Shown: positions 31,122 through 39,355 of the stretch, one piece after another | Layout: each line of letters starts with the position of its first letter | Position numbering within the stretch: position 1 is the stretch's first letter | DNA from: Methanolobus sp. | GTDB lineage: Archaea; Halobacteriota; Methanosarcinia; Methanosarcinales; Methanosarcinaceae | Reading direction: 5' to 3' | DNA: 64,000 nt | Assembly: GCF_030682845.1 (NCBI RefSeq) | Contig: NZ_JAUXNK010000075.1 | Location: 4,234 to 68,233, forward strand | Notes under the pieces: model-generated | Told to the model about the DNA's origin: nothing | The model's database searches: none | What the model saw: the letters and a program-made list of their open reading frames with translations, nothing else | Position numbers and translations under genes: made by a program

Positions 31122-33047
31122 TTAATTCACGACTATAACATTGTCATCATCTGGTGTTGCTGTATCATTCACAGTCTCAGTATCGTTTACTGTTTCTGTG
31201 TCTTCTGGAGTTTCATCCATTGGTGCTTCTTCGTCTACCGGAGCTTCTTCGTCTACTGGTGCTCCTTCATCCACTGGAGCTTCTTCGTCTACTGGAGCTT
31301 CATCTACTGGAGCTTCTTCATCTACCTCGCAGAATCCCAGAGTCACCCATGCATTGTCATCTCCCATCTCTCCGATGTTCTCGATTTCTAATGCAATGAC
31401 ATATCCTTCATTATTTGGTGGAAGTACTCCGTCCCAAGTATCTTCGAAGTGAACGACAATAGAAGTAATTCCGGCTTCACCAGTCTGGTTCATGTCCTCA
31501 GTCTGGTTCATGTCTTCAGTCTGGTTCATGTCCTCAGTCTGGTTCTCCATGTCCTCCATTTCAGTCATGTTCGCTTCATCTCTTACGAACATGACCTGGC
31601 CTGTCTCATTGTCCTCTATCTCAGTCCAGTTTCCATTCTCATCACTTACATGGCTTATCTGGTCTGCAGGCACATTGAGCATGACAGTACTGATAGATGC
31701 ATCCGGGAATGTTTCCAGGGTGTCACTTGTCAGTTCTATGTTTGCGAAGTAAGGGGTCGTTTCATTGTTAACTATCATGGTGGCATTCAGCTGACCATCA
31801 TATTCGCTCCTGTCTTCCTGAACAACGTTCAGATAACATGTTGTTATCCCTTCTCCCATGCAGGCTATCCACGCATTGTCATCCTCAGCATCACCGATGT
31901 TCTCGACCAGTGCTGCAATGACATAACCACTCTCTGTAACCGGCATGGTTCCATCCCATTCCTCTGTAAAGGTTATGGTGATTGGACCTGTTGCGTTGCC
32001 GTTCTCCTCAGATACTGTGATCTCTGTTGCGAAGTTTCCGAAATCATGTTCTTCCATAGCGGTCATCCTAGAAACGATCACTATAAGGAAGTCTCCGAAT
32101 GGCCTGTCGTCTGCTTCTTCCTCGATCTCTGTGAACTCAAGTTCATTTCCTTCAGCATCAGTCACACTTTCGATCTGATCTGCAGGTACATTGACTAGAA
32201 TCTTGCTTATCTGTGCACTCTGGAATGTTTCAAGAGTTTCATTTGCCAGCTCTATTTCGGCAGTGTTTGCTTCATCATCTATTATCATGCTTGCATTGAG
32301 CTGTCCTTCATATTCGCTCTTGTCTTCCTGAACAATGTTCAGATAGCAGTCAGCTTCTTCTGGCGCCTCTTCATCTACCGGAGCTTCTTCATCCACTGGA
32401 GTTTCTTCATCTACTGGTGCTTCTTCATCTACTGGTGCTTCTTCGTCTACCGGAGCTTCTTCATCCACTGGTGCTTCTTCGTCTACCGGTGCTTCTTCAG
32501 GCACACCTTCTATAGGTGCTGGTGCTTCACAGAAACCGAGGGTTACCCATGCACTGTCATCGGCAGTTTCTCCGATGTTGTTGATCTCAGTTGCTATGAG
32601 ATATCCTGCATCGTTACTTGGGAATGATTGGTCCCAGTCCTCCACCATAGTTATGGTGATGGTAGTAGCAGGTTCGACTTCTATATCTGCACCTGGCTCA
32701 ACGCTGGTAGTGAAAGTGCCAAGATTCTCTGCATCTTCGCTAACCTCATTTACTTGCCATTCGTTTCCCTCTGCATCAGTTACGCTTTCTATCTGATCGG
32801 CAGGAATATTGAGCAGTATGGTCTCAATCACTGCTTCCGGATAAAGGGCCTGAGTTTCATCTGTCAGCATCATTTCAGCTGTATATGGAACTGATGTGGC
32901 CACATCCATGCTCACATTCAATTGCCCGTCGTACTCGTCTTCCTGGACGTCGTTTAGATAACATGCCGCACTGGTAAGCCCGATTGACAGGAATACCATA
33001 ACAGCAGTTATCAACGCTATTCTTAACCTCGAATCATTCATTTTCAT
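31122..33047 (-). CDS. Secreted acidic protein with three copies of an unrecognised ~145-aa Cys-bracketed domain and acidic repeat linkers
   Basis: Signal peptide (..LTSAA); three CYLN..AW(V/I)..C units; (APVDEE)n and (EDMNQT)n repeats; no C-terminal anchor. Confidence 0.85.
   Translation of the reverse strand: MKMNDSRLRIALITAVMVFLSIGLTSAACYLNDVQEDEYDGQLNVSMDVATSVPYTAEMMLTDETQALYPEAVIETILLNIPADQIESVTDAEGNEWQVNEVSEDAENLGTFTTSVEPGADIEVEPATTITITMVEDWDQSFPSNDAGYLIATEINNIGETADDSAWVTLGFCEAPAPIEGVPEEAPVDEEAPVDEEAPVDEEAPVDEEAPVDEETPVDEEAPVDEEAPEEADCYLNIVQEDKSEYEGQLNASMIIDDEANTAEIELANETLETFQSAQISKILVNVPADQIESVTDAEGNELEFTEIEEEADDRPFGDFLIVIVSRMTAMEEHDFGNFATEITVSEENGNATGPITITFTEEWDGTMPVTESGYVIAALVENIGDAEDDNAWIACMGEGITTCYLNVVQEDRSEYDGQLNATMIVNNETTPYFANIELTSDTLETFPDASISTVMLNVPADQISHVSDENGNWTEIEDNETGQVMFVRDEANMTEMEDMENQTEDMNQTEDMNQTEDMNQTGEAGITSIVVHFEDTWDGVLPPNNEGYVIALEIENIGEMGDDNAWVTLGFCEVDEEAPVDEAPVDEEAPVDEGAPVDEEAPVDEEAPMDETPEDTETVNDTETVNDTATPDDDNVIVVN
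31218..31325 (-). repeat. 18-bp coding tandem repeat (APVDEE)
   Basis: About 6 imperfect copies of GAAGAAGCTCCAGTAGAT/C. Confidence 0.85.
31485..31575 (-). repeat. 18-bp coding tandem repeat (EDMNQT)
   Basis: About 4 copies of GAGGACATGAACCAGACT inserted within domain 3. Confidence 0.85.
32355..32500 (-). repeat. 18-bp coding tandem repeat (APVDEE)
   Basis: About 8 imperfect copies between domains 1 and 2. Confidence 0.85.
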
Positions 33048-33487
33048 ATTGTACCACCTACATTTAAGTGTAGTCGATAATGCTTTTGTTTCTAGTGTGT
33101 TATTCTCTTTGCGAAACATTGCTACATAATTTGCTTAGTGATTACATATCTTAGGTGGTAGCACTAATGCAAGAGCAATCTTGAGGCTATATCTTGTGAT
33201 CAAAAAGGCTGTAATAAATGATCCTTCTCTGCTTTGAGAACACAAGAAACAACAACATCAGGAGCTAAAAATATGCCCGATAAGGAACATTAGAACTACT
33301 GGAAATTAGAAATGGCGAAAGTTAATGGTAAGAAAGTTAATGGTAAAATATAAAATTGAATAAAGGACCAGTGTCGCAAATGAAAACAGTTTCAATTGCC
33401 GGACATTTCCCTTCTTCCACTGGTACACCTTCATTCTGTTACTATTCGTTTCTTGCAATCTGATCTATCTCTTAATCACCTTCTCAA

Positions 33488-35647
33488 TTATTCTGTATCG
33501 TTCATGTCTGTATCATTTACAGCTTCCATGTCCTCCATTGTTTCGGTCTCATTTGTTCCTTCAAGCATTGAAGGTGGCAGCATCACCGAGTCAATTACAT
33601 GTATGATGCCGTTGCTGGCTTCAATATCTGCTGTTGTTACATTGGCATCATTTACCATGACATTCTCGTCTTCTATTGTGACATTGATATCTTCGCCCTG
33701 TACCGTTGTCAGGGATTCCATATCTGCTATGTCACTGGCTGTGTACTCTCCTGAAACTACATGGTATGTCAGAACAGCAGTCAGAGCTTCTTCATCCTGT
33801 AGTAGTTCATCCAGTGTACCTTCCGGGAGTGCTTCAAAGGCTTCATCTGTTGGAGCAAATACCGTGAAAGGTCCATCTCCACTCAGCGTCTCAGTAAGAT
33901 TTGCTTCCTCCAGGGCCAGGACCAGAGTTGTAAAAGAACCTGCCGCGGTTGCTGTTTCGACAATATTCATTTCCTCTGTGGTTTCATCTACCTCGCAGAA
34001 TCCCAGGGTTACCCATGCACTGTCATCTCCCATCTCTCCAATGTTCTGGAAATCAACAGAGATAACATATCCTTCCTCGTTTGCAGGCAGAGTTCCATCC
34101 CATGTCTCATTCATGTAGATGGTAATGGGGCCTGTATCTGTTGCATTGGCCTCGTCCGTTGCAAATCTCTCGATAACTGTCCTGTTGTCACCCAGATCAA
34201 CCAATGTCCAGTTTCCATGCGGAGCTGTTACATTGTCTATCTGGTCTGCAGGGATATTGAACAGGATGGTTTCGATCATCGTGTCCGGGAACGTCTCAAG
34301 AGTTTCATTTGTAAGCTCGATCTCAATGAAATAAGGCTCTGTTTCATTGCTGATCATCATGGTTGCATTGAGGTCATCTGCATATTCACTCTTGTTCTCC
34401 TCAACAAGGTTGATATAACACAGGGTCATCATGTCAACCGGTGGCTCTTCCACAGGCGGTTCCTCTATTGGTGGCTCTTCCACTGGAGGTTCCTCAACAG
34501 GTGGTTCTTCTACTGGCGGTTCTTCAACAGGTGGTTCTTCCACTGCTGGTTCTGTCTCGCAGAAACCAAGTGTCACCCATGCACTGTCATTACCCATCTC
34601 TCCGATATCTTCGATGTTCGCAGCTATCACATATCCTTCCTCATTCTCTGGGAATGTACCGTTCCAGCTGTCGTCGAAGTATATTGTGACAGGACCTGTT
34701 GCATTGCTGCTGGTCTCATTGATGGTTATCTTTGTAATGAACTGGCCGAACGGGTTCATCATATCCTCACTCATGGTGAGCATTGTAGTGAAATTACCAA
34801 ACGGATTTGGTTCTTCCTCCACTATCTCCGTTATTTCCCACTCGTTCCCAAGTGTATCGTTTGCATTGACTATCTGATCCGCTGGCACATTCAGCACTAT
34901 TGTCGTTAATGTTGCATTCGGGAACGTTTCCTGGGTGTCATTCGTCAGTTCGATCTCAGCCGTGTAGGGCGTGGTTTCATTATTGACGATCATTGTAGCG
35001 TTCAGATCACCATCATACTGTGTCTTGTTCTCTTCAACAATGTTCAGGTAGCATGTTGTTACATTGGTAACGTTCTCGGCGGGTTCTTCCCCGTTGACTG
35101 GTTCCTCGTCATCTACAGGCACATCATCTATGGGTGTGTCCTCATCACAGAATCCCAGGGTTACCCATGCACTGTCATCCTCCATCTCTCCAATGTTCTC
35201 TATATCGACTGCTATAACGTATCCTTCATCGTTCTCCGGGAATGTTCCGTTCCAGCTGTCATTGAAGTTTATGATTACAGGACCTGATGCATTCTCGGTG
35301 TTCTCGTCTATATCAGCCGTTATGATAGTATTGGTCTGACCTTGTTCATCTATCTCTACTATTGACCAGTTCCCGGCTGCACTGCTTGCACTCTCTATCT
35401 GGTCTGCAGGGACATTCAATAGAATAGTGGTCATAGTAGCGTTCGGGAAAACTTCCAGAGTTTCATTGCTCAGCTCGATCTCAGCTGAGTATGGTGTGGT
35501 CTGGTTGTTTATGGTCATTGTTGCGTTGAGGTCGCCATCATACTGGCTCTTATTCTCCTCAACTAAATTTATATAGCATGCCGCGTTCGCAAAGCCTATA
35601 GAAAGGACCGCAATCGCAACAGCTAAAAGCAATATTCTTTGTTTCAT
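33488..35647 (-). CDS. Secreted acidic glycoprotein: three copies of the same domain plus C-terminal fasciclin (FAS1) domain
   Basis: Signal peptide (..FANAA); three CY(I/L)N..AWVTLGFC units; FAS1 H1 (FTVFAPTDEAF) and H2 (NGIIHVIDSVMLP); more than 35 NxS/T sequons by hand count. Confidence 0.88.
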   Translation of the reverse strand: MKQRILLLAVAIAVLSIGFANAACYINLVEENKSQYDGDLNATMTINNQTTPYSAEIELSNETLEVFPNATMTTILLNVPADQIESASSAAGNWSIVEIDEQGQTNTIITADIDENTENASGPVIINFNDSWNGTFPENDEGYVIAVDIENIGEMEDDSAWVTLGFCDEDTPIDDVPVDDEEPVNGEEPAENVTNVTTCYLNIVEENKTQYDGDLNATMIVNNETTPYTAEIELTNDTQETFPNATLTTIVLNVPADQIVNANDTLGNEWEITEIVEEEPNPFGNFTTMLTMSEDMMNPFGQFITKITINETSSNATGPVTIYFDDSWNGTFPENEEGYVIAANIEDIGEMGNDSAWVTLGFCETEPAVEEPPVEEPPVEEPPVEEPPVEEPPIEEPPVEEPPVDMMTLCYINLVEENKSEYADDLNATMMISNETEPYFIEIELTNETLETFPDTMIETILFNIPADQIDNVTAPHGNWTLVDLGDNRTVIERFATDEANATDTGPITIYMNETWDGTLPANEEGYVISVDFQNIGEMGDDSAWVTLGFCEVDETTEEMNIVETATAAGSFTTLVLALEEANLTETLSGDGPFTVFAPTDEAFEALPEGTLDELLQDEEALTAVLTYHVVSGEYTASDIADMESLTTVQGEDINVTIEDENVMVNDANVTTADIEASNGIIHVIDSVMLPPSMLEGTNETETMEDMEAVNDTDMNDTE
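34438..34548 (-). repeat. 15-bp coding tandem repeat (EEPPV)
   Basis: Seven copies of GAAGAACCACCTGTT-like units. Confidence 0.88.
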
Positions 35648-35913
35648 TGTTGTACCACCCCACTTAAAGTGTTACATATAAGGTTCTTTTTTTTGCTTAA
35701 GGGGGTTGCGAAACTTAACTTCGGAGGATTGTAAAGGCAGATACATTCTGGCTTTTGAGTTAGATTGTAAAAAGCATGACCTTGCCGGTTTATGTATATA
35801 GTTAGCCACAAGTACCGCTGAAACCGTCTTAGCAGCAAAAGTACATTGAATAATGCACGGAAACAAAAATAGAACGAATAATATTTAAAAATAAAAGTCA
35901 GGAAGGAGTTAAT

Positions 35914-36537
35914 TTACTCCTTTCTGCGCTGTAACATGAATGCAAGACCAATGATTGATGCTATTGGAAGTGCAACGGTTGGAAACTCTGGAATCTCTTG
36001 GATGCTGGCACTGGTGCATTCTGCAAATGCCCAGACGGAACTAAGTTCTCCTTCTGTGCCAGTTGCATAAAGCACTGCATACTCTTCTTCCCCATTTTCA
36101 TTTACCCAGCGGATGTGGATCGCGATCTTAATCTCATCGGGACACGTATCATTTTCGAAGCCGGAGATGTTTAATCCAGTACTCCTAAGTTTTGCTTGAT
36201 CGATCTCGAATTCAGTACCATCGCTAAATTCATCTTGAAAAGGTCCTGACATTGGACTTTTTATGCTCCAGTTTATGGAGGGATTGTCATCAATTGCTGT
36301 TGTTGCGCTTGGCCAGATCTGTATTGTCTTGATGCCTGGATTCAGGATTCCACTACTGTTGTCAACAATGTGCAGTTTGCCGTCAATACATTCTATATCA
36401 AAATCTATGTCCATCCCTTCCGGGATATCATCACTATATTTCCAGCTACTGCAACTATAGGCAGCACTTGTAGTTCCCACAATCACTAGCATGCAAATAG
36501 CTACAGCTATTGTCACTATCTTTAGTATTGTCCTCAA
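35914..36537 (-). CDS. PEF-CTERM sorting-domain protein (TTG start)
   Basis: Signal peptide; C-terminal IPEFPTVALP-TM-QRRKE. Confidence 0.9.
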   Translation of the reverse strand: MRTILKIVTIAVAICMLVIVGTTSAAYSCSSWKYSDDIPEGMDIDFDIECIDGKLHIVDNSSGILNPGIKTIQIWPSATTAIDDNPSINWSIKSPMSGPFQDEFSDGTEFEIDQAKLRSTGLNISGFENDTCPDEIKIAIHIRWVNENGEEEYAVLYATGTEGELSSVWAFAECTSASIQEIPEFPTVALPIASIIGLAFMLQRRKE

Positions 36538-36703
36538 CTAACCACCCCAAACGGTATTTCAACTCTTAACTATCTGTTCTGAGGATATATACTTTTCTAA
36601 TTTATGTTATATGTATATCTATAATTAGGAGGTGTGTTATTCAGTGTTAACACTTTAAAACAGAATAATAAGCAGTAAAAAAGAGAAAAAGAGAGGAGTA
36701 AAA

Positions 36704-37342
36704 TTACTCCTTTCTGCGCTGGAAGAAGAATGCCAGACCAAGGATTGCTGCTATTGGGAGCGCAACAGTTGGGAACTCTGGAATCTCGTTTATTCCACTG
36801 CCGCCATTGGTGCAGCGTGTGAATGCCCAGACGGAGCTAAGTTCCTCTTCCTCAACTGGACAACCATTTGCGAAAAGTACACCCTGCATCATTTCGCCAT
36901 TTTCATTTTCCCAGCGGATGTGGATTGCAAGTGCAATCTCTTCGGGACACTTTCCATCATTAAAGAGTATGCTTACTCCGGTGCTTCTCTTGTTTGCCTG
37001 ATCTATCTCAAACTCAACGCCATCAGCAAATTCATTTTTGAATGGTCCTGTCATAGGAGACTTTGGACTCCATTTTATGGCTGTATCATCATCAATGACT
37101 TGTGTTGCAGTTGATGTATTAGACCATATCTGTATTGTCTTTATGCCTGGATTCAGAATGCCGCTACTGTTGTCAACAATTGACAACATGCCATTGTCAC
37201 ATTCTATATCAAAGTCAATATCAATTCCTTGAGGGAGCTCATCGCTGTATTGCCAGTCGTCACAAGTGAACGCAGCACTTGCAGTCCCTATAATCATTAG
37301 CATACAAATAGCCATTATTGCAGTTTTCAGTATCGTTCTCAC
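36704..37342 (-). CDS. PEF-CTERM sorting-domain protein, paralog of 35914-36537 (GTG start)
   Basis: IPEFPTVALP-TM-QRRKE; shared IVDNSSGILNPGIKTIQIW. Confidence 0.9.
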   Translation of the reverse strand: MRTILKTAIMAICMLMIIGTASAAFTCDDWQYSDELPQGIDIDFDIECDNGMLSIVDNSSGILNPGIKTIQIWSNTSTATQVIDDDTAIKWSPKSPMTGPFKNEFADGVEFEIDQANKRSTGVSILFNDGKCPEEIALAIHIRWENENGEMMQGVLFANGCPVEEEELSSVWAFTRCTNGGSGINEIPEFPTVALPIAAILGLAFFFQRRKE

Positions 37343-37523
37343 CTTACCACCTCTATTTGATATATTCATTCCTTATCTCTCTTCCTGAGGATATATACTT
37401 TTCTAATTTGTGCATGAAGTGATTGTGATGATGATGATGAGATTCAGCATTTATGCTTAATCTTAAAATATGACTATTTAATTTAAAAAAGTAAGGAGAG
37501 GATTAAAGCTTACGAATGTAAGC

Positions 37524-38141
37524 TTATTCTTTCTTGCGCTGGAACATGAACGCAAGTCCCAGTATTGCTGCAATTGGCAGTGCAACTGTTGGGAACTCAG
37601 GGATTTCCTGTACAGGGCCGCCGTTATCCTCGCTGTTGTCCTGGTATCCCAGCCATACACTCTCAGGGCATTCGGGCAGTCTTGTAACGTGCAGAACTAT
37701 GGAGTAGTTGTTCGCATTCTTCGGAAGCACGCCATCCCAGTCTTGGTCCATCTGTATCTTGATGTACTTTACAGTTCCCTGGTTGCCGCTTTCCCTGTCA
37801 ACTGCTGTGAGCATTGCTCCGTATCCTGCATTACCCTGACCTTTGTCATCCTCGACTACCCAGTCGACTTTTGGGTTGTCATCTGTGACACTTACAATCT
37901 TGTCTGCAGGGATGTTAAGCAGTAATGTCTTCATAGAAACCTTGGCAGTTGTTGGCTGCAGGATCTGAAGTTCTACTGTTTTGTCTGCGTCATTGACTTT
38001 GATTAAAACGTCGATATCGCCTTTGTAGTATTCGTTCGCATTTTCTTCAGTCAGGTGAAATTCATTCACTGCTGCACTGGCTGTTCCTAAGACCATGAGC
38101 AGGCAAGCTGCCATGATCATTCTGAGTAGTGTGTTTTTCAT
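37524..38141 (-). CDS. PEF-CTERM protein carrying one copy of the repeated domain
   Basis: IPEFPT-TM-QRKKE; LLLNIPADKIVSVTD and DWDGVLPKN match the large proteins. Confidence 0.9.
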   Translation of the reverse strand: MKNTLLRMIMAACLLMVLGTASAAVNEFHLTEENANEYYKGDIDVLIKVNDADKTVELQILQPTTAKVSMKTLLLNIPADKIVSVTDDNPKVDWVVEDDKGQGNAGYGAMLTAVDRESGNQGTVKYIKIQMDQDWDGVLPKNANNYSIVLHVTRLPECPESVWLGYQDNSEDNGGPVQEIPEFPTVALPIAAILGLAFMFQRKKE

Positions 38142-38440
38142 CGTACCACCTTATTTAAGTACAGGCGCACATGACCTCTCTACCTATTTATATTTACCTC
38201 TTGAAATATTAAAGGGTCTAATTATAATTAGGCTCAAAGAGGCTGTTATATATCTGTTTCTCTACTGCCAGGCATATTTACCAATTATCTGCAACAACTC
38301 TGAAAAGAGTTTAGCTTAATTTTCTCTCATATTATGGTCGCCGAGGCCAAATTGTCTGCGGTGCCAGGAATTTATGCCTCATCCGGAACTAATGACTTCA
38401 TCACTTCTAATCGCGCCTGAGTTGCCGCACTGATGGATGT

Positions 38441-38467
38441 TACTCATAAAGTTTATATTTATGAGTA
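38441..38467. promoter_or_regulatory. Perfect 10-bp inverted repeat overlapping a TATA-like element
   Basis: TACTCATAAA-GTTTATA-TTTATGAGTA. Confidence 0.55.
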
Positions 38468-38545
38468 TGATAAAAGGAAAATATCGCTCTAATAAACGCG
38501 AATACTATATAAAGGAAAAAAAGGGAGGAACGGTGGAAGGAGGTT

Positions 38546-39151
38546 TTACTCCTTCCTGCGCTGGAAGATGAATGCAAGTCCCAGTATTGCTGCTATTGGC
38601 AATGCAATTGTTGGGAATTCAGGGATTTCGTTGATGTTGCCACCGTTATCCTGATATCCCAGCCAGACACTTTCAGGGCATCCAGGCAGCCTTGTAACGT
38701 GCAGAACTATGGAATAGTCATTCACATTCTTTGGAAGCACGCCGTCCCAGTCCTGTTTCATCTGTATCTTGATGTATTGTACAGTTCCCTGGTCGCCCTT
38801 GTCCCTGTCAACTGCCGTGAGCATTGCTCCGTATCCTGCATTGCCCTGGCCTTTGTCATCCTCGATCACCCAGTCAACCTTCGGGTTATCATCTGAGACA
38901 TTTATGATCTTGTCTGCCGGGATATTGAGAAGTACTGTCTTCATAGAGACCTTTGCATCGGATGGTTCTATGATCTCAAGTTCTACTGTTTTGCTGACAT
39001 CATTCACGGTGATCTTTACATCGATCTCGCCGTTATAGTATTCGTTTGCGTCTTCTTCGGTCAAGTGGAATTCAGTTACTGCTGCACTAGCTGTCCCCAC
39101 AATCATTAGCAGGCAAGCTGCCATGATTATCCTAAATATTGTGTTTTGCAT
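38546..39151 (-). CDS. PEF-CTERM protein, close paralog of 37524-38141
   Basis: IPEFPT-TM-QRRKE; near-identical core (GQGNAGYGAMLTAVDR, VLHVTRLP.CPESVWLGYQD). Confidence 0.9.
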   Translation of the reverse strand: MQNTIFRIIMAACLLMIVGTASAAVTEFHLTEEDANEYYNGEIDVKITVNDVSKTVELEIIEPSDAKVSMKTVLLNIPADKIINVSDDNPKVDWVIEDDKGQGNAGYGAMLTAVDRDKGDQGTVQYIKIQMKQDWDGVLPKNVNDYSIVLHVTRLPGCPESVWLGYQDNGGNINEIPEFPTIALPIAAILGLAFIFQRRKE

Positions 39152-39355
39152 TGTACCACCTTTTATGTTTGTACAAGTGCACAGTGTCCTCTTCTGATAT
39201 TTATATTCTCTGCTGATTATAAAAGTGCTCATAATGATGATGAGCAGTTTAGGTGCAGTGATATAGTGTTTTCTATAGTTTTGTCTACCTATACTTCATT
39301 TCTATCCTAACAACTGCAGTAAAAGAGATTTACTCCCCCGGCCTTACATTCATTT

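Follow-up and report, generated by a model that had tools for sequence, protein, structure and literature searches.

The window analysed here is a stretch of 64,000 nt from Methanolobus sp. (NCBI RefSeq assembly GCF_030682845.1, contig NZ_JAUXNK010000075.1, positions 4,234 to 68,233 of the forward strand), in which the minus strand between positions 31122 and 39232 holds six open reading frames (ORFs) arranged head to tail (genes A–F), all encoding proteins with signal peptides. We interpret this locus as a probable island of cell-surface proteins that has expanded in one lineage of Methanolobus. It holds eight clear copies of a domain of ∼145 amino acids (aa), hereafter the unit: three in each of the secreted, anchorless proteins A (ORF 31122–33119, likely 31122–33047) and B (33488–35647; 719 residues), and one in each of E (37524–38141) and F (ORF 38546–39232, likely 38546–39151), which carry a PEF-CTERM sorting signal. 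The remaining genes, C (35914–36537; 207 aa) and D (ORF 36704–37369, likely 36704–37342, with a GTG start), encode two further PEF-CTERM proteins. We favour, with moderate confidence, the interpretation that proteins of the A/B type are abundant cell-coat or matrix glycoproteins that mediate adhesion or aggregation, with the unit as their scaffold. A preliminary description of this DNA had already placed a six-gene surface-protein locus here; the six genes lie as it had described, and the likely start of F at 39151 agrees with the end it had given.

The relationship between anchored and anchorless proteins was established with a hidden Markov model (HMM) built from the six A/B units only, with the complete set of 16,517 six-frame genomic ORFs as the search target. 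The model matched E (E-value 2.5e-13) and F (1.2e-11) over nearly the whole profile length and, at the level of sequence comparison, the homology of A/B with E/F is statistically sound. The preliminary description had staked its proposal on such a link between the PEF-CTERM proteins and the large proteins, and had claimed that the latter contain three ∼145-aa copies each, whilst a single copy forms the entire mature part of the proteins at 37524 (E) and 38546 (F); all of this holds, as does the mixture of PEF-CTERM-anchored and anchorless members. Its count of about ten units stands for the eight copies in A, B, E and F, with the two in C and D being only probable.

In protein A, the units lie at 32526–32963 (A1, residues 53–198; independent E-value 6e-61), 31848–32348 (A2, residues 258–424) and 31326–31838 (A3, residues 428–598), and in protein B at 35144–35578 (B1, residues 24–168), 34556–35053 (B2, residues 199–364) and 33992–34420 (B3, residues 410–552), each opening with C-Y-[LI]-N and closing with W-V-T-L-G-F-C-E. 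The single units of E and F occupy 37632–38069 and 38642–39079, respectively, F being a tandem paralogue of E with 81 % identity. A2 and B2 are long forms, in which a segment of ∼20 aa with the motif NPFGxFxTxxT is duplicated internally, and in A3 the place of this duplication is taken by an insert of (MNQTED)n, encoded by a DNA repeat at 31481–31545. The unit tolerates an extra strand-loop insertion at this point. The linkers, rich in Pro and Glu, consist of tandem repeats of 18 nt encoding (EAPVDE)n between A1 and A2 (32356–32499) and of 15/30 nt encoding (PVEEP)n between B2 and B3 (34434–34553); an array after A3 (31212–31325) resembles the A1–A2 linker. Additionally, B ends in a fasciclin (FAS1) domain that the preliminary description had overlooked (33575–33937, residues 571–691), which is full-length (PF02469, E-value 1.5e-42, 145.1 bits against a cut-off of 22, profile positions 2–123 of 123).

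As read from the sequence, all six proteins start with a basic stretch that is followed by a hydrophobic core and an A-x-A type site (TASA/A, ANA/A), and because of these signal peptides an extracellular location, as previously suggested, is the natural reading for all of the proteins. The mature forms of A and B are highly acidic, with an isoelectric point of ∼4 in both and only 1 % (A) and 0.9 % (B) lysine plus arginine, and contain 15 and 37 N-x-S/T sequons, respectively. For B, this amounts to 5.3 sequons per 100 aa, compared with a genome median of 0.39 and a 99th percentile of 2.18. Pfam and NCBIfam scans and inspection of the C-termini revealed no anchor of any kind in A or B. An N-terminal lipoprotein anchor on the Cys that follows the signal peptide was considered and rejected, as the preceding S-A-A and N-A-A are not a lipobox and the equivalent Cys opens every internal unit. 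A third anchorless paralogue is found elsewhere in the genome; it has two units and the C-terminus EADLVVTLQS, is split by a contig break within its repeats (C21:9371–10276 and C45:1–405), and has an orthologue at this second site in Soudan_28 (L021). Short, conserved, hydrophobic and strand-like C-termini following an acidic, sequon-rich tail are in fact seen in several anchorless members (A, P0155, P0157, P0158, P0160, P0162, P0148, P0153 and P0156), with the motifs DDDN[VI]I[IV]VN, EADLV[IV][TI]LQS and TQI[NT]EV[IV]TT; the tail of A ends in DDDNVIVVN (31122–31150). These motifs could be interaction or assembly strands.

In four metatranscriptomes from four studies (groundwater, sediment, one coded organism), contigs 90–97 % identical to the locus were present. 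A and B were covered nearly end to end at depths of 5–54, B by single contigs of ∼2.07 kb (depths of 12.8 and 54), and C was covered by a contig of 601 nt at a depth of 74.7, whilst D, E and F were hardly seen. The neighbouring 4.2 kb with five housekeeping genes yielded, in the same runs, three short contigs with a depth of ≤ 3. Because these adjoining genes are nearly uncovered, the island signal represents RNA rather than carried-over DNA. Close relatives in nature thus transcribe A, B and C at a comparatively high level.

The unit itself could not be assigned to a named family, as the preliminary description had also concluded. When the six proteins were scanned against Pfam and NCBIfam, no family matched it; a search of the same databases with 19 diverse units at E ≤ 10 gave a best E-value of 0.017, with no family found in more than two members; and a profile search of PDB sequences gave no matches at E ≤ 10. 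AlphaFold2 modelling of the E core from a 40-sequence alignment produced ten strands and no helices, with a predicted local distance difference test (pLDDT) score of 92.8 and a predicted template modelling (TM) score of 0.88. As modelled, the unit is a beta-sandwich of immunoglobulin (Ig)-like appearance without a close solved relative: a Foldseek search of the PDB with this model found nothing at E ≤ 0.001, the best match being the cohesin-like 2jh2 (E-value 0.012, TM 0.31–0.33). Given these values and the absence of a Pfam cohesin match, we rejected the unit as a cohesin. We likewise rejected it as a donor-strand-complemented pilin of the chaperone–usher or TasA-like kind, since similarity to such subunits was not significant (AggA, E-value 0.04 and TM 0.25; Cuniculiplasma filament, E-value 0.36) and the E model is a complete, confident domain. 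Among 116 domains of the family, 86 have a Cys both within the first 24 and within the last 14 residues, 23 have neither and seven have one; the two terminal Cys are found at the start and end of each A/B unit, are both kept in C and D, and are both lost in E and F. Such co-occurrence suggests a staple joining the termini of the unit, which is notable for a strict anaerobe.

Among the closest known systems are surface proteins with tandem Ig-like or beta-sandwich repeats, namely fibrillar adhesins of the DUF11, CARDB or SdrD-B type, and cohesin modules. All-beta tandem repeats of ∼145 aa, flexible linkers and end domains are alike in both, and in some relatives the unit is itself fused to DUF7507/SdrD_B/DUF11 repeats; however, none of these families matches the unit in sequence or, at a significant level, in structure, and the termini of the unit are bracketed by the Cys pair. 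By analogy, the unit would work like the Ig-like repeats of fibrillar adhesins and S-layer-associated proteins. Repeated beta-sandwich modules are commonplace on surface proteins. The domain is new, being unnamed and restricted to one family of organisms, whilst the type of system is familiar and introduces no new principle. Secreted FAS1 adhesion proteins form a second point of comparison, with B sharing a full-length FAS1 domain, secretion and probable glycosylation. They differ in that FAS1 makes up only 121 of the 719 residues of B, the remainder being the three units, and in that A has no FAS1 domain.

All of proteins C–F scored above the cut-off of 23 bits for TIGR03024 (C 34.9, D 42.0, E 39.6 and F 44.2), the matches covering profile positions 1–25 of 25 and ending one residue before the stop (C, 35920–35994; D, 36710–36784; E, 37530–37604; F, 38552–38626); A and B gave no match to this model. 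The genome encodes about ten PEF-CTERM proteins in total, four of which are in the island. It also contains artC, as the preliminary description had suggested checking, with an intact frame at G000:C40:5408–6223 (TIGR03762, 302.7 bits against a cut-off of 100); another PEF-CTERM gene (C40:349–975) is situated ∼4.4 kb away on the same contig. Two publications that refer back to Haft et al. (2012) describe ArtC as the archaeosortase predicted to be specific for PEF-CTERM (PMC5244752; PMC9723798). C–F show every sequence-level feature of predicted PEF-CTERM/ArtC substrates. In common with archaeosortase substrates, i.e. the PGF-CTERM/ArtA surface glycoproteins of Haloferax and the predicted PEF-CTERM/ArtC class, they combine a signal peptide and an extracellular domain with a C-terminal sorting signal, here a PEF motif, a hydrophobic helix and a basic tail, in a genome that encodes ArtC; they differ from such substrates in that their passenger domain is unnamed and their paralogues A and B have lost the sorting signal. 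By analogy with ArtA and PGF-CTERM, archaeosortase C would cleave the PEF-CTERM segment and leave the protein lipid-anchored.

Whether C and D, which are paralogues with 68 % identity, also derive from the unit is less clear, the preliminary description having proposed them as a distant version of it. Neither was found at E ≤ 10 when the A/B-unit HMM was searched against the ORFs of the genome, a broader 19-sequence profile reached them only at E-values of 11–30, and HMMs of six, eight and 19 sequences all failed to reach them; the proposal thus receives no HMM score. On profile–profile comparison (HHalign), however, the C/D cores aligned with the unit family over 90 columns with P=0.0013, in the very register that had been proposed (IKTIQIW / DDNPSINW / IAIHIRW) and with motif order kept, and none of 400 column shuffles of the C/D alignment reached the observed score of 25.6 (mean 12.3, standard deviation 2.3, maximum 22.6). 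Three other PEF-CTERM families used as controls gave P values of 0.04–0.58. Furthermore, C/D and the unit are alike in size, in a Cys near the mature N-terminus and in S-x-W...C at the C-terminus. An AlphaFold model of D, from four sequences only (pLDDT 64.7 overall, 70–88 in the core), is all-beta with 11 strands; Foldseek found nothing significant for it in the PDB, and its weak list overlaps with that of E (DsbD-alpha, YcnI, 2czn and 4lee). C and D are therefore probably divergent copies of the unit, although this is unproven. The less probable alternative, to which we would give perhaps one chance in a few, is that they form an unrelated, small, beta-rich PEF-CTERM family occupying a ‘second gene’ slot of the island, comparable to the HETAW-type and ISHxTFC-type families that fill this slot in other genomes. 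It would account for the lack of HMM significance and for an HHalign probability of just 18 %, and finds a parallel in L015, L022 and L026, where no unit is detectable in the family of the second PEF-CTERM gene; moreover, just four members of the C/D family exist among 5.8 billion proteins, which makes for a weak profile. The alignment statistics, the controls, the shared size and Cys pattern, and the D model with its overlapping structural list all speak against it.

When 1.84 billion representative proteins were searched with a trimmed 19-sequence profile, only 45 clusters were found at E ≤ 0.001. Full-length PEF-CTERM homologues were kept out of the search profile, as hmmbuild would model their PEF-CTERM tail, and trimmed DNA references from fetched loci took their place. 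The unit is present in 24 of 151 Methanosarcinaceae genomes, spread over five of 16 genera, whilst a phylum-wide sample of 401 genomes contained 20 with a match, 18 of them Methanosarcinaceae and the other two marginal (E-value ∼1e-3); as judged from these searches, it appears confined to the Methanosarcinaceae. Multi-unit anchorless proteins were found only in Methanolobus (11 genomes of the sample), a genus in which at least 20 genomes have no unit at all. Amongst cultivable species, M. chelungpuianus has homologues (P0007 and P0146) and M. psychrophilus R15 has the two-unit paralogue (P0160). A literature search with the locus tags of the M. psychrophilus homologues returned nothing.

The relatives of A and B end variously in fasciclin, cupredoxin, both, hemerythrin or nothing. 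The cupredoxins of P0141, P0150 and P0151 contain an amicyanin-like copper-site motif, C-T-I-H-P-E-M (YYCTIHPEM); a B-like relative at L015:4623–7082 also ends in an amicyanin-motif cupredoxin, and the C-terminal domain of P0159 is a hemerythrin. The most elaborate arrangement belongs to an anchorless protein of 1574 aa from Methanolobus sp. ZRKC2 (L017:7310–12034), which reads unit, cupredoxin-like, FAS1, cupredoxin-like, FAS1, unit, unit, cupredoxin-like, FAS1; its cupredoxin-like domains contain no Cys. In other proteins, the unit sits between a beta-helix/NosD passenger and PEF-CTERM in P0261, P0264 and P0265, and N-terminal to DUF7507/SdrD_B/DUF11 repeats, with a different C-terminal membrane helix, in P0278, P0280 and P0282. 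Because its partners are so varied (FAS1, cupredoxin, hemerythrin, beta-helix, repeats), the unit seems to behave as a structural module of surface proteins rather than as an enzyme.

The island occupies a conserved chromosomal site, with the order trpS, pheS, a DUF362/4Fe-4S gene (opposite strand), the island, a DUF166 gene (opposite strand) and onward to glmM, which is preserved in L014, L017, L022, L024, L026 and L029. Distant single-unit members come from unrelated metagenomes (P0075, P0015, P0083 and P0071), and four of the five single-unit relatives that were looked up lie at exactly this site, where some are accompanied by a second PEF-CTERM gene from a different family and others are not. 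In Methanolobus sp. Soudan_28, ZRKC2, M. halotolerans and others the site contains one PEF-CTERM gene and then one or two multi-unit genes; wherever a multi-unit gene is found there, at least one PEF-CTERM gene precedes it (six of six loci), and in L022, L026 and L029 a PEF-CTERM gene is present without a multi-unit gene. The second PEF-CTERM genes of other genomes (L022:9133–9744, P0025; L026:5744–6226; L014:9131–9652, P0028; L017:6573–7067) include one family with a HETAW motif and one ending in ISHxTFC, neither detectably related to the unit. The site thus has the appearance of a hot spot for the turnover of predicted ArtC substrates.

In a maximum-likelihood tree of 32 units, those of the multi-unit proteins formed a single clade (support 87/93). 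The anchored P0075, which has one unit, fell inside this clade among the first-position units, and E/F were the sister group (94/91); units clustered by position and by orthologue. All pairs were under purifying selection, with ratios of non-synonymous to synonymous substitution rates (dN/dS) of 0.16–0.22, compared with 0.04–0.09 for the flanking pheS and trpS. Synonymous divergence (dS) between A/B and their Soudan_28 orthologues (L014) was 0.62–0.99, two to four times that of pheS/trpS (0.20–0.28), and the island alleles may be older than their flanks or may have been exchanged between lineages. The simplest history suggested by these data begins with an anchored single-unit ancestor. The DUF362–DUF166 site would originally have held one or two small genes, each specifying a signal peptide, one domain and PEF-CTERM. 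In part of the genus Methanolobus, a P0075-like anchored unit would then have been multiplied within one gene, which lost its anchor to give the secreted three-unit proteins A and B; multiplication and anchor loss would precede the divergence of Methanolobus species. There, the anchored gene would later have duplicated in tandem (E/F, and probably the very divergent C/D too).

The interpretation of A/B-type proteins as an adhesive glycoprotein coat or matrix follows from their composition (acidity and sequons), signal peptides, FAS1 domain, linker repeats and transcription. Fasciclin is chiefly an adhesion module, and acidity together with a high sequon density is typical of archaeal envelope glycoproteins. 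The unit would serve as a structural spacer or scaffold carrying other modules, in B the fasciclin adhesion domain, and E/F, probably along with C/D, would be membrane-anchored members of the same family. In line with a matrix role, the extracellular polymeric substance (EPS) fraction of granular sludge was found to contain a fasciclin protein from a methanogen of the Methanosarcinales (PMC6367495). Several points weigh against this interpretation. That the proteins are glycosylated, lipid-anchored, adhesive and located at the surface or in the matrix is in each case a prediction, and our search of the literature found no experimental ArtC processing of PEF-CTERM for any substrate. With no recognisable anchor, A and B may simply be released. 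The scaffold role is deduced from domain architecture only, and the unit itself may instead bind a specific ligand. Furthermore, the metatranscriptome contigs derive from relatives that are about 90–95 % identical, and the depth of assembled contigs is a poor, rough measure of abundance.

The preliminary description had gone further, proposing that anchored single-unit proteins (E, F and perhaps C and D) seed or tether A and B through homotypic unit contacts, giving a fibre, a matrix or an accessory layer. In its favour, anchored and anchorless neighbours here share one unit, every multi-unit gene at the site follows a PEF-CTERM gene, and anchorless proteins need some means of retention; the strand-like C-termini (DDDNVIVVN, EADLVVTLQS, TQINEVITT) could additionally aid strand-mediated assembly, and both a cohesin-like module and a fimbrial subunit of the donor-strand-complemented type are among the weak top Foldseek matches. 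As a general logic, however, it failed: seven of the 11 Methanolobus genomes with multi-unit anchorless proteins lack a single-unit copy at E ≤ 0.001, and in four of the six syntenic loci (L014, L017, L018 and L019) the unit is missing from the adjacent PEF-CTERM protein. Moreover, the site was ancestrally occupied by a PEF-CTERM gene, also in genomes where it holds no multi-unit gene, so that adjacency in the island is explained by descent; the Foldseek matches are not significant (E ≥ 0.012, TM about 0.3); and E, F and D are hardly seen in metatranscriptomes that cover A, B and C well. We therefore regard this model as unlikely; homotypic tethering may operate in this genome but is not the rule, and a heterotypic partnership or release into the matrix may apply instead.

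Somewhat less likely again is that A and B are released exoproteins, i.e. polyanionic glycoproteins, in solution or embedded in EPS, whose task would be to bind cations or minerals or to condition surfaces, with the anchored paralogues serving an unrelated role. Such a role would fit the missing anchor, the extreme acidity with about 1 % basic residues, the fusion of relatives’ units to metal-related cupredoxin (amicyanin-like C-x2-H-x2-M) and hemerythrin domains, and the methanogen fasciclin protein of sludge EPS. Set against it are the chiefly adhesive function of fasciclin and the fact that the same acidity and sequon density are equally typical of envelope glycoproteins, and binding of metals or minerals would itself be a prediction. 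We consider least probable of all that the unit is a self-associating module, with anchored copies or other PEF-CTERM proteins nucleating a glycosylated second layer or fibres of multi-unit proteins to whose assembly the hydrophobic C-terminal strand motifs might contribute; if true, this would be a new kind of archaeal extracellular assembly outside the methanogen S-layer, displaying FAS1 adhesion domains and, in relatives, cupredoxin or hemerythrin redox or metal domains.

With regard to gene boundaries, Shine–Dalgarno motifs (GGAGGT/AGGTGG) fall inside the long ORFs, where they are translated as ‘RW’ or ‘GG’, and the database form of D (P0019) is 212 aa long. For these reasons the likely starts are 33047 for A, 37342 (GTG) for D and 39151 for F. 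In the case of A, the ORF itself is open to 33119; its likely ATG at 33047 has AGGTGG upstream, and the L014 orthologue has the same start region. Intergenic gaps in the island measure 150–400 nt and terminator-like hairpins are present at the stop codons of D, C and A, which suggests that the genes are transcribed separately.

Descriptions of the envelope of methylotrophic methanogens are poor for everything but the S-layer, and the island offers a nameable domain family with a confident fold model and with anchored and anchorless paralogues side by side. Next to nothing is known of the identity or role of archaeosortase C substrates, for which it provides an entry point to ArtC sorting, and the blue-copper and hemerythrin fusions of relatives prompt one to ask whether redox or metal chemistry takes place outside the cell. 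In groundwater and sediment, the genes of the anchorless members rank among those that Methanolobus populations transcribe better, and the island is thereby also an entry to N-glycosylated matrix proteins and to aggregation and attachment in methanogens of subsurface, coal and oil environments.

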